Below are positions 45,001 to 48,000 of a stretch of 63,369 bases of DNA, piece after piece. The stretch comes from Stx2-converting phage Stx2a_F403, in the sequence record AP012529. One strand, given 5' to 3'. Each line of letters begins with the position of its first letter. The first letter of the stretch is position 1. A program made the position numbers.

Positions 45001-48000
45001 GCAGTTGTTTGTCTTTGACCCGAATAATCCGGATAACACAGCCTATCCGTTTGCGGTATCAGGTGGCAAGGTAGTGATCCCGAAAGCGATGATTTATGAC
45101 GCGGTGATTGAAACACTGGTGTCGCGGAAGGTTGTGGCGGATGAGGTAAAAGCCGGGGTAAGTATCACTTCGCCAGTTATCCGGAGTGCCGTTATTCAGA
45201 ACGGAAACTTTCAGGTTGATTCTCAGGGTAACCTGAATATTGGAGGCCTTTTCAGTGTTACGTCACAAGGGCAACTGACAATTCGTTACTCTAATCAGAA
45301 TGTAGGACTGGTGATCCGCAATGATAAAATTGAGGTTTATGACCAGAATGGACGACTGGCTGTTCGCATAGGCAGATTACGCTGATCAGGAGGTGAGTAT
45401 TGGAATACGGTTTTGCCATTTATAACAGAAATAACGTTAATGTTACGGGCGTGCTGACTCCAGTATTTTTCCTGGACAGATTTACAGCGGAGTCTGGCTC
45501 AAAGACGTACACTAATAAACCCGACGGGAAATCATTGCAGGCTGTATGTTGTTTATTTCCCTGGAATAATGTATTTGCGGATCGGAAAGTACCGAAGATA
45601 ACCATTAATGACAATACGGTGACGTGGTCGAATCTTGAGCAGGGTATGGGATCTTATATTTATACATTCTGGGGATAAGTGTTATGTACGGTTTGAGCAT
45701 TATGAAGCCGGATGGCAGCGTATGGATAAGTCCAGGTTTTACGCCGCAGTGTCTGATCAACAAAGGCACCATACCGGCGACTGAAAAGTCTTTTTTTAAA
45801 ACATCAATCCCGTCAGGCAAAAGTTGTTTTTTCTTTATCAGAACAGAGAAGAAGGCCGATGTCATGTACACGCATGAACAGATTGATGGATATCATGCAC
45901 TAAGGCTTCATGTAATTGTCAGGGGAACGAACCCTGGTGTTACGACGGTTTATGCTTTCGCGAATATGGTTACTCCACCTTCTGAGTATGGTATCGCCAT
46001 GTATAACCCGGACGGTGAGATGATTTATCATGGCAAAATGATGCTGCTTGACGCGAAGTTAATACCTGTTGATATCAAATTTGAAAAGGACCTTGGATAT
46101 CCATGCGCAATCATGCCTGCACTGGTCGGGTATTATAACTGGAAAAGAACTCCTTATGATCGACCGATTTATACCACATCCACTGGTGCTACAGGAAATA
46201 AAATATATTCCTGTGAGCATTATTCCGGTGGTGCAACATGGGATATTCGAAAGCCGTATATAGATAAGGTCCTGGTTATTAATACATCAGTATATGATTA
46301 GTTGAAGCGAGTCTTTAATATTCATTTAAAATGTCTAAAAAGATGTATTATTAAAAAGTTTAGCGTGTTATCTGAATACAGGATATCTTAAATGAAGAGT
46401 ATAGCAACACTGGTTGTGTGTGCAATCTCCGGGATTGCCTGTGTAAATTTATCTGCACATGCAGCAGAAGGAGAGCATACAATTTCTCTGGGGTATGCGC
46501 ACTTTCAGTTTCCGGGACTGAAGGATTTTGTAAAGGATGCGACTGCTCATAACAGGGAGACTTTCAGTCATTTCGTCAACAGAAACTACTTTTCTTCATT
46601 GGGCGAATATACAGATGGTCGGGTCAGTGGATATGAAGGCAAGGATAAAAATCCACAGGGCATTAATATCAGGTATCGCTACGAGATAACGGATGATTTT
46701 GGCGTTATCACCTCTTTTACATGGACGCGTTCTCTCACTAACTCACAGACATTTATTGATGTGCAGTCAGCCGATCATACCAGGAAGATTAAGAATCCGG
46801 CAGCTTCTGCCAGAACGGATATCAGGGCGAATTACTGGAGTCTGTTAGCGGGGCCTTCATGGCGGGTTAATCAGTACATGAGTTTATATGCGATGGCAGG
46901 GATGGGCGTTGCTAAAGTTAGCGCTGACCTGAAAATTAAGGACAATATTAACAGTAGTGGCGGATTTTCTGAAAGCAACAGCACGAAAAAAACCTCCCTT
47001 GCGTGGGCTGCAGGTGCACAGTTTAACCTGAATGAGAGTGTTACACTGGATGTGGCTTACGAAGGTTCCGGCTCTGGCGACTGGCGCACGAGTGGCGTTA
47101 CTGCTGGCATTGGCCTGAAATTCTGACCTGTATCCGGTAACCGTTTACTACCCGCTGTGATGGCGGGTTTTTTATTGCCCGTACAGGGCAAAAACCGTAA
47201 ATTATGCGTGGGTGCCTTTCGGCTGATGGCTGGAGGGTGAACCTGAAGGCCTGATGTGGAAAGGCCCCGAGTCAACTTAACGTTAACCCGAGGCCCTAAC
47301 ACTTCGTACCTTAAGCAAGTAGAAGGTTAGCGCCTCTCTGTAAAAGGAGTCAAGCGCTATGTCGCAAAAATCGCTTATCACCGTCACAATTTGCATGACG
47401 GTTATCTTCACCATCTGGATGTTGCACGGTTCACTGTGTGAGTTCCGGCTGAATTTGTGGGGAGCGGAGTTTGCGGCGTTCTTACAGTGTAAGCAGTAGG
47501 AAAACCGCGACGGGGACGAGAGTCCCCGTCAACTGGTTGCTGAGGTTCAGCCGATATGGCACCCGTTTCAGGTGAGAGAATGAACGATAAAATTCTCTGG
47601 TATATGCAGCGTGTTGTGAGAAATTCCCGCAACCCTGAATTTATGAATGAAGTTAAAGACGCCTGCCTTAAAAAGCAGGCGTTTTGTTTTGAGGCACCTG
47701 ATGGCTTTTTGGTGCTGCGTTCTGTGCTCAGTGCTGATGGTATCCCTTATGTTCTGGTGTTGCTGGGCGTGTGTACGGGGAGTAACAGCGTTGAGCGTTA
47801 CCTGCCGGAGGTGAAGACATTAACCCATCTGGCTGGCGGACGCTGGGCTGAGTTCCATACGGCAAGGCGGGGATTTATCCGGCTGGGAAAACGACTGGGC
47901 TTTGAGCGAATGCCGGATGATGAGGATGGCTTCATGGTGTTCAGGATAGCGGTCTGACTGCTACAGTTTTCATCATTGTGTTTAAACCAACATTGTAATT

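Follow-up and report, generated by a model that had tools for sequence, protein, structure and literature searches.

In hok/sok (parB) of plasmid R1, the paradigmatic type I toxin-antitoxin (TA) system (Gerdes and colleagues), a small membrane toxin is paired with a cis-antisense RNA of about 60 nucleotides (nt) consisting of a 5' tail that is single-stranded, then a long hairpin and a U-tail. The toxin mRNA is closed by pairing between its tac and fbi elements, carries a hairpin ahead of fbi and presents the antisense target hairpin only after refolding, and translation of the mok frame up to the hok Shine-Dalgarno sequence (SD) is mandatory (PMC9841398). A relative, hokW-sokW of Sakai prophage Sp5, is a working TA system, partly dependent on RNase III and Hfq, that aids phage release (PMC8621323). 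A separate literature deals with 24B_1 of the Shiga toxin (Stx) phage Phi24B, an RNA from the 'intergenic' region between lom and vb_24B_43 that has been published as a trans-acting microRNA-like regulator (Nejman-Falenczyk et al. 2015 and 2023; PMC4426718, PMC10732415). Here we describe a locus of Stx2-converting phage Stx2a_F403 (AP012529; the whole stretch of 63,369 nt is referred to as the window, and positions are given on it, plus being the strand as read and minus its complement) that brings these systems together. We consider it highly likely that 47210-47564 is one complete hok/sok-type type I TA module, a moron that a 933W/Sp5-like Stx prophage carries downstream of lom. The toxin gene itself is already known, as a catalogued and widespread Hok homolog; what this analysis adds is a description of the module in full, the finding that it lacks a canonical mok, and the proposal that the 24B_1 precursor is the cis-antisense Sok-like RNA of the module.

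A Hok/Gef toxin gene downstream of lom

The initial annotation had placed a 46-amino-acid (aa) open reading frame (ORF) with an AAGGAG ribosome-binding site just after the terminator of lom (ORF 46392-47126; Pfam Ail_Lom, 113 bits), followed by a stable hairpin. The ORF, its ribosome-binding site and the hairpin are all present.

47150-47174, plus strand: intrinsic terminator of lom, the upstream boundary of the module (terminator scan: hairpin 47150-47168, then a T-run)
47344-47349, plus strand: SD AAGGAG of the toxin ORF, 9 nt upstream of the ATG, as read from the sequence
47359-47499, plus strand: toxin ORF of the Hok/Gef family, 46 aa (RefSeq WP_000078907.1; peptide 72_1589 of a Hok-diversity preprint)
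47509-47530, plus strand: 9-bp GC-rich hairpin of the 3' region, 99.8% of alignment cells paired, three pairs with compensatory changes

The 46 codons of 47359-47499 encode MSQKSLITVTICMTVIFTIWMLHGSLCEFRLNLWGAEFAAFLQCKQ, and a longer N-terminus is excluded by a TAA in the toxin frame at 47341-47343, three codons ahead of the SD. The hairpin 3' of the ORF pairs GACGGGGAC (47509-47517) with GTCCCCGTC (47522-47530) around a GAGA loop and has 9 bp, one more than first counted. The resemblance to Hok, initially noticed in the C-terminal signature, is beyond chance, since the profile search that had been proposed as a check was positive above the curated Pfam threshold: HOK_GEF (PF01848) matched with 33.2 bits (gathering cut-off 22, E 4e-8, profile positions 6-42 of 42), and PHROG 251, a family that also contains HokW, with E 2.8e-24. 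The hallmarks of the family are found in the peptide, namely an N-terminal hydrophobic helix (residues 6-22, LITVTICMTVIFTIWML), SLCE at 25-28 and a second, C-terminal cysteine. C27 and C44 are invariant across 30 homologs; the role of the two Hok cysteines is described in the introduction of the preprint (bioRxiv 10.1101/2025.08.07.668861).

Relatives of the peptide among 5.8 billion proteins number 56; each comes from E. coli, Shigella or Salmonella and is named 'Hok/Gef family protein'. The 30 full-length homologs measure 46-47 aa, with M1, Q3, K4, C27, C44 and AEFAAFLQCK (near-)invariant. In all full-length homologs, which stem from four genera, the ORF is intact. Nucleotide diversity (pi) at codon positions 1, 2 and 3 is 0.113, 0.045 and 0.164, respectively, i.e., the order 2 < 1 < 3 of a coding sequence, and the pairwise ratio of nonsynonymous to synonymous substitution rates (dN/dS) is about 0.2-0.3, pairs with variants L006 and L007 being invalid because 3-nt indels put them out of register. 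The peptide is under purifying selection. These data bear on the simplest alternative, that of a chance open frame followed by an ordinary terminator of the lom transcript region, which could appeal to an ORF that is very short, falls below ORF-track cut-offs and is left without annotation in GenBank records AF125520 and HM208303. We give it a probability close to nil. Besides the significant Pfam and PHROG matches and the coding-type substitution pattern, lom has its own terminator 340 nt upstream, and no T-run follows the 47509-47530 hairpin on the plus strand, either in the terminator scan or in the sequence itself. A chance frame is thus already refuted by the profile match, the conservation of the homologs, the codon pattern and dN/dS.

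Within the family, the best NCBIfam match is the HokA equivalog NF007290, at 38.4 bits versus a cut-off of 89, and a HokA orthologue is rejected on this score. The gene shares with hokA-sokA, in addition to this best hit, 45% peptide identity to K-12 HokA (37% to HokW), both hard-coded cysteines, and a GCACCC at the equivalent 3' position. It differs from it in falling into a separate 60%-identity cluster (72 here, 93 for HokA, in the preprint) and in its upstream frame: mokA is annotated with the hokA stop codon, consistent with an in-frame extension, whereas the in-frame stop here precludes one. The K-12 hokA leader (L090, NC_000913.3 3720448-3720633) is cut by IS150 32 nt upstream of the ATG and, owing to this truncation, is not comparable; mokA is annotated there as a pseudogene, and ysaE is annotated on the opposite strand, overlapping the 3' end of hokA.

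Annotation, distribution and toxicity of the homologs

RefSeq carries the protein as WP_000078907.1, 'Hok/Gef family protein', encoded between an Ail/Lom gene and a hypothetical protein. At a coverage of at least 80%, the 355-nt unit 47210-47564 occurs in 1670 of 5426 complete E. coli genomes (~31%), in up to eight copies each, and every E. coli genome match listed bears the label 'Hok/Gef family protein' of the Prokaryotic Genome Annotation Pipeline (PGAP). The unit is also found in about 197 phage records, including 933W, Phi24B, Stx2 II, Min27, P27, ArgO145 and the P2-like P88, in which the gene is called 'small toxic polypeptide' or 'MokW-like host killing', or has no label. The ORF had been described as unannotated; this is true of the old GenBank records of 933W (AF125520) and Phi24B (HM208303), and false for RefSeq and for many other phage records.

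Toxicity on induced expression had been named as a further check. An identical peptide, 72_1589 (clone LRP157), is listed in Table S2 of the Hok-diversity preprint (bioRxiv 10.1101/2025.08.07.668861, 2025-26), where it belongs to the high-abundance cluster 72. According to its text, 42 of the 45 Hok homologs tested were toxic, the exceptions being 19_179, 60_1482 and 69_1540. The exact peptide was tested and is absent from these three, which implies that it is toxic to E. coli on induced expression. The same text states that Sok, mok and the mRNA were outside the analysis of that study.

The toxin mRNA is predicted to be closed by its two ends

Around the ORF, homology extends over a 355-nt unit with recognizable ends and internal elements.

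47210-47564, plus strand: hok-type mRNA unit (leader, toxin ORF, 3' region), 355 nt, homologous when the flanks change; z-score of the minimum free energy (MFE) -5.85
47175-47203, plus strand: putative mRNA promoter, -35 TTGCCC (47175-47180), 17-nt spacer, -10 TAAATT (47198-47203), read from the sequence
47210-47226, plus strand: tac-equivalent 5' element, GGGUGCC (47210-47216) and CGGCUGA (47220-47226), able to pair with the 3' end or, in a local 5' hairpin (47210-47268), with nearby sequence
47547-47564, plus strand: fbi-equivalent 3' element, UCAGCCG (47547-47553) and GGCACCC (47558-47564), complementary to the 5' end
47290-47337, plus strand: leader target hairpin (GAGGC/GCCUC and CUAAC/GGUUAG stems) with a variable patch on top, predicted only in the 3'-shortened mRNA

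Copies from Stx phages, P2-like phages, Salmonella, E. albertii and Citrobacter were aligned. Across these contexts, homology starts a few bases before GGGTGCC (47210) and stops at GGCACCC (47558-47564), and the match to P88 terminates at 47564. A TAnATT box 6-7 nt ahead of GGGTGCC is kept in homologs from other contexts. The mRNA would start at G 47210, where the Rfam hok-leader model also begins. With the Rfam model RF01794, the leader is matched at 47210-47372 over the full model (35.6 bits, E 2.6e-6 in a permissive 701-nt search; gathering score 59), and the Rfam scan at the gathering threshold returned nothing at the lom-adjacent locus. Since the same model matches the hokW leader on the strand that encodes hokW, it represents the sense leader, and the plus-strand match obtained here reflects leader homology.

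The interval 47210-47575 folds with -155.4 kcal/mol (z -5.85), and in the MFE structure its 5' end is paired with its 3' end, as in the tac/fbi closure of R1. On the sense alignment, RNAalifold preferred the local 5' hairpin to the tac/fbi pairing; the two are alternatives, so the latter was tested explicitly. On 50 distinct sequences, used for all helix counts given here, the core tac/fbi helix was paired in 98.6% of the cells and its extension in 86.5%. A second long-range helix, between the start-codon region (47359-47376) and the GAEFAAF codons (~47462-47480), was paired in 99.0%. Overall, the named helices were paired in 96.9% of the cells, against 35-47% when the partners were slid by 1-3 columns. 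The helix between the start codon and the 3' codons accounts for a further feature of the ORF, the near-freezing of third codon positions at both of its ends (pi 0.086 and 0.028, versus 0.238 in mid-ORF).

The hairpin at 47509-47530 shows compensatory exchanges, e.g., AU in 30 and GC in 20 sequences at one pair, and CG in 22, AU in 20 and GC in 6 at another. In variants L008 and L026 it retains a G-U pair, whose opposite-strand equivalent is an A-C mismatch; because such pairs exist on the plus strand only, the hairpin works in the plus-strand RNA. A minus-strand terminator, flagged by the scan, was rejected for the same reason. A structural role in the 3' region of the hok-type mRNA fits the hairpin better than that of a terminator. 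As no U-run follows it, it may, by analogy, correspond to the stem-loop that halts the exonucleolytic trimming of the fbi segment in R1. In a modelled mRNA shortened accordingly (47210-47536), the 5' end folds locally and the GAGGC/GCCUC target hairpin forms, and in thermodynamic modelling the probability of being unpaired is higher in the shortened than in the full-length mRNA, both for the SD (0.48, against 0.32) and for the AUG (0.51, against 0.24). The predicted order of elements, with a 3' hairpin before fbi and a target hairpin that appears only upon refolding, is that of R1.

A Sok-like antisense RNA with a hypervariable tail

The initial annotation had also proposed looking for an antisense promoter and a small RNA opposite the leader. 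Both are present, and the RNA has been detected from the 98.7%-identical locus of Phi24B.

47324-47353, minus strand: antisense promoter, -35 TTGACT (47353-47348), 18-nt spacer, -10 TAACCT (47329-47324), identical to the published p24B_1 promoter
47258-47316, minus strand: Sok-like antisense RNA, 59 nt, starting at G 47316, in which about 19 nt of variable tail precede a 16-bp hairpin (47297-47261) and UUUCC
47301-47316, either strand: hypervariable patch and presumed specificity determinant, complementary to the antisense RNA over its single-stranded 5' tail

The antisense -10 box is invariant in 30 of 31 distinct variants. The same TAACCT hexamer serves as the sokW -10, where its mutation was used to silence sokW; this follows from primers YO-421/422 taken together with the hokW sequence. 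A sigma-70 consensus scan of 47050-48050, which requires at least 4 of 6 matches per hexamer, found no promoter; TAACCT scores 3 of 6. Since the scan misses the antisense promoter, we rely on its conservation and on its identity with the sokW and p24B_1 promoters. As in R1, the cis-antisense RNA thus has its own promoter opposite the leader, and it is fully complementary to the leader of the toxin mRNA. Its size of about 60 nt, single-stranded 5' tail, long hairpin and U-containing end also recall Sok of R1, and its outer stem and tail (GCCUCGG...CUCGGGGCC UUUCC) resemble those of sokW (GCCUCAG...CUGGGGC UUUUC).

Folding supports the minus strand as the one that makes this RNA. In the window it folds with -27.2 kcal/mol, against -11.9 for its complement; across variants the values range from -12.5 to -28.2 kcal/mol, and in 15 of 15 the antisense strand is 4-15 kcal/mol better than the complement, because several pairs are G-U on the minus strand. 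RNAalifold on a MAFFT alignment returned the lower stem only, as indels misalign the upper one, and the variants were therefore folded singly. The upper stem then displays mutually compensating solutions, among them UUAAC/GUUGA, AAACA/UGUUU and UUAAACA/UGUUUGA. Among Stx-phage copies, pi reaches 0.33 in the patch (computed on 47299-47316), compared with 0.027 in the coding sequence and 0.013-0.047 in the flanks. From sequence diversity, this is the pattern that would be expected of the recognition determinant of a cis pair.

The antisense RNA coincides with the 24B_1 precursor of Phi24B

In a Phi24B lysogen, 80 min after mitomycin C induction, 2223 reads of a single 20-nt RNA, TAACGTTAAGTTGACTCGGG, were obtained, and its promoter boxes TTGACT / CGCTAACCT and an 80-nt hairpin precursor were predicted (PMC4426718). 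This RNA maps to the locus described here.

47266-47285, minus strand: 24B_1, 20 nt, UAACGUUAAGUUGACUCGGG, an exact match, which covers the apical loop and 3' arm of the antisense hairpin

By its template primers (PMC10732415, Table S2), the 81-nt 24B_1 precursor maps to 47316-47236 on the minus strand, and its 5' end is the same G (47316) that is predicted here for the antisense RNA. The precursor binds Hfq in vitro with a dissociation constant of 25 nM (PMC10732415). The Phi24B locus is 98.7% identical to the window, differing only in the variable patch and the loop of the 3' hairpin, and encodes the identical 46-aa peptide (HM208303, 45784-45924), with no coding sequence in the record. The DNA is the same and so is the promoter, TTGACT/TAACCT; the difference between 24B_1 and the antisense RNA is one of interpretation. 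That the toxin partner of 24B_1 was overlooked for a decade is explained by the reference record, which leaves the ORF unannotated. Neither of the two 24B_1 papers mentions hok, an antitoxin, toxin-antitoxin systems or a toxin ORF (PMC4426718, PMC10732415), and a review by the 24B_1 group treats Hok/Sok and 24B_1 in separate sections. We found no literature linking 24B_1 to hok, within a coverage that is incomplete and hence no proof of absence.

We slightly favour a reading in which the '24B_1 microRNA precursor' is the Sok-type antitoxin RNA of an overlooked Hok gene, the 20-mer would be a stable fragment of it, for instance an RNase III product of the duplex between antisense RNA and leader, at least part of the lysogeny and induction phenotypes ascribed to 24B_1 would come from deletion of a TA module, and the module would work without an R1-type mok. 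The published 189-nt 24B_1 deletion corresponds to 47159-47347 of the window; besides the antisense RNA, it removes the promoter of the sense mRNA and its whole leader, and cuts away half each of the SD and the lom terminator. The view held so far, that the minus-strand RNA is primarily a trans-acting regulator of microRNA size (with the phage d_ant, the region upstream of S and the host sdhB as targets) and that its overlap with a Hok leader is incidental or secondary, draws on this deletion, which alters lysogenization, induction timing, burst and phage gene expression, on the opposite effects of overproduction, and on the weak pairing of the 20-mer with sdhB mRNA in vitro (PMC4426718, PMC10732415). 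We regard it as improbable. Since the sense promoter, the leader, part of the SD and the antisense RNA are lost together, the deletion phenotypes are not assignable to the 20-mer. The RNA matches a conserved hok-type leader with perfect complementarity, is built like Sok and shares the -10 box of sokW. Its 5' tail varies together with the target, forming a hypervariable patch, as expected of a cis pair and not of fixed trans targets. Finally, the RNA element accompanies the toxin ORF into P2-like phages and Salmonella, where neither d_ant nor the 933W S region is a neighbour. The two roles, in trans and as an antitoxin, are not mutually exclusive.

A hok leader without a canonical mok

The second hok gene of the prophage provides the closest comparison. 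A canonical hok near 60.2 kb had been reported for the window, giving two loci, and is confirmed: the HokW ORF lies at 60162-60314 on the minus strand (51 aa, Pfam 81 bits; identical to preprint peptide 35_712), the Rfam sok model matches 60309-60483 on the minus strand with 113.5 bits, at the gathering threshold, and the primers of Takada et al. 2021 match 60100-60500 (minus strand) and not the lom-adjacent locus. The 60100-60500 region is the characterized hokW-sokW of Sp5-type phages. Its leader shares with that of the lom-adjacent locus a succession of blocks, comprising the -10 box, the 5' GGGUGC, GAAAGGCCCC, a hairpin complementary to the antisense terminator, GAGGC, AAGGAG and GCUAUG. 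The two loci further have in common the prophage type, the protein family, the antisense -10 TAACCT and an antisense RNA linked to Hfq. Cross-talk between them is not expected, as their antisense target patches are unrelated. They differ in that HokW, at 51 aa, is accompanied by an in-frame mok start (CCATGCTG) right after GAGGC, which the lom-adjacent locus lacks, and in that hokW-sokW has been shown to be a TA system, whereas the lom-adjacent locus is a predicted one, from sequence and structure.

The GAGG of the target hairpin is the mok SD in R1 and hokW, with the mok AUG within a few bases. At the lom-adjacent locus, the combination of SD and start in the antisense target is absent, so that, unlike in R1, no mok frame starts inside the target; a second difference from R1 is that the toxin has its own strong SD, with a start codon masked by the last ORF codons. 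As mok translation is mandatory in R1, the R1 mechanism is not transferable unchanged. An ATG read from the dot-alignment as 'GATGG' was rejected, the raw sequences being GTGATAGG or GTAGTAGG. One conserved candidate for another leader frame was found.

47254-47330, plus strand: candidate leader ORF from an overlapping ATG/GTG (ATGTGG, 47254-47258), conserved and located in the 5' hairpin

In the window, the ATG frame has 8 codons and the GTG frame 24 codons, the latter ending at TAG 47328-47330, 14 nt before the toxin SD. In 42 of 52 distinct sequences and 11 of 14 alleles, the leader ORF comes, in one frame or the other, to within 40 nt of the toxin ATG, an outcome that by a rough binomial estimate has a chance probability of about 0.05, the alleles not being independent. 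The predicted accessibility of ATGTGG rises from 0.22 to 0.58 in the shortened mRNA. The toxin would be controlled either directly, by structure and antisense-triggered decay acting on its own strong SD, or via the leader ORF from 47254/47256; it is possible that this ORF is a functional substitute for mok, blocked mid-frame by the antisense RNA.

The lack of an R1-type mok, together with candidate leader ORFs that vary in frame and length between alleles, could also indicate an evolutionary relic, no longer expressed or regulated and merely carried along by the phage. Such an interpretation would agree with copies that have lost their 5' end (variant L025), with the interruption of K-12 hokA by IS150 and, according to the introduction of the preprint, with the suggestion of earlier authors that the hok/Sok systems they had studied on chromosomes lack activity. 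We hold it to be very unlikely, given an ORF kept intact at 46-47 aa in full-length homologs of four genera with dN/dS of about 0.2-0.3, the conservation of every RNA element, with compensatory changes, and the maintenance of the unit in 1670 E. coli genomes as well as in about 197 phage records. In addition, the antisense RNA is transcribed (PMC4426718), and the peptide is among the homologs tested in the preprint and is not listed there as non-toxic.

Neighbouring features and other copies

Downstream of the module lies the gene of a hypothetical protein (47556-47957, plus strand; homolog of vb_24B_43 and L0129, WP_000035558.1), whose annotated start, ATG 47556, overlaps the fbi element. The product has no Pfam hit, and PHROG 610 matches residues 9-133 only; because of this coverage, the real start is probably ATG 47580, after the hok unit. 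A terminator-like site is located inside this gene, at 47659-47690.

In some Stx-phage copies, the Stx-type contigs L025, L027, L046 and L050 of IMG/VR (around locus 2350 and 2710), homology to the window is lost right at the ends of the hok unit, with the flank beyond 47570 falling to about 35% identity. L025 has, moreover, another sequence in place of the 5' tac segment and may be a disabled copy. The unit looks like a recombination or mosaic boundary. In P2-like prophages (L051, L056, L059, L071, L076, L079 and L080, and P88, NC_026014 34928-35068), the module is found at the extreme end of the element, past a tail gene. Many prophage calls in IMG/VR end 3 nt past the toxin stop codon and lose the 3' hairpin and the fbi element, so that catalogues built from such boundaries miss the 3' region of the mRNA. 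A scan of genome contigs gave 7 loci, several under implausible organism names: L002, L003 and L005 come from assemblies titled Xanthomonas pisi (an 857-nt contig, 100% identical), a Planococcaceae metagenome-assembled genome and Vagococcus sp. These matches most likely represent contamination or mis-binned E. coli/Salmonella DNA and not a real host range.

Elsewhere in the window, Rfam matches at the gathering score lie at 7899-7957, 19430-19626, 22819-23067, 24476-24735 and 62835-62923. They comprise the lambda cIII thermoregulator, isrK, C4 with its a1b1 target, three tRNAs, STnc100 beside the anti-sRNA AsxR (a marker of Stx2 phages), and sRNA-Xcc1 near the window end.

Discussion

The elements described above fit together as a hok/sok-type module, and by analogy with R1, with support from folding and conservation, its operation would be as follows. 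The full-length mRNA would be locked by pairing of its 5' end (47210-47226) with its 3' end (47547-47564). Slow 3' trimming to the GC hairpin (47509-47530) would free the 5' end to refold, and the refolded leader would expose the target hairpin with its variable patch and open the toxin ribosome-binding site. The antisense RNA would pair via its variable 5' tail, and the duplex would be degraded, probably by RNase III. Toxin would appear only once the unstable antisense RNA is no longer replenished, or is swamped by late read-through from lom. Such read-through is conceivable because the module points the same way as lom and the late genes: late transcription, once antiterminated, could enter the module and yield a toxin mRNA without a proper 5' end.

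Several observations weigh against this assignment, or against parts of it. A classical antitoxin should be present in the lysogen. Reads of 24B_1, however, were reported at 80 min only, and not in the uninduced lysogen or at 40 min, and the reverse transcription polymerase chain reaction used for 24B_1 is not described as strand-specific (PMC4426718). The terminator scan and the 24B_1 authors alike found no canonical terminator after the antisense hairpin, which is followed by only three U. On the sense strand, the mRNA, its ends and its processing are predictions; the RF01794 match to the leader scores below the gathering score; and the tac/fbi core is invariant, and hence displays conservation without covariation. 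After the conserved GAGG, no start codon (ATG, GTG or TTG) is found in 13 of 13 representative alleles. At the protein level, the NCBIfam HokA and Hok models score the peptide far below their cut-offs. Moreover, the introduction of the preprint (bioRxiv 10.1101/2025.08.07.668861) reports that several chromosomal hok loci gave no post-segregational killing and have been suggested to be inactive. A complete hok/sok-type module nevertheless remains, in our judgement, by far the best account of 47210-47564, and its biological role could lie in maintaining the prophage, in aiding lysis, like HokW, or in excluding other phages.

The finding connects two literatures. Of the two hok modules in phages of the 933W/Sp5/Phi24B type, only hokW-sokW has been studied as a TA system, whereas the lom-adjacent one has, it would seem, figured for ten years as the first 'phage microRNA', with its toxin partner unnoticed. 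The phenotypes of the delta-24B_1 phage, namely faster induction, higher burst, poorer lysogenization and global derepression of phage genes, call for re-examination in this light. The lom-adjacent locus is, in addition, a natural test case for the control of a hok-type mRNA without a canonical mok.

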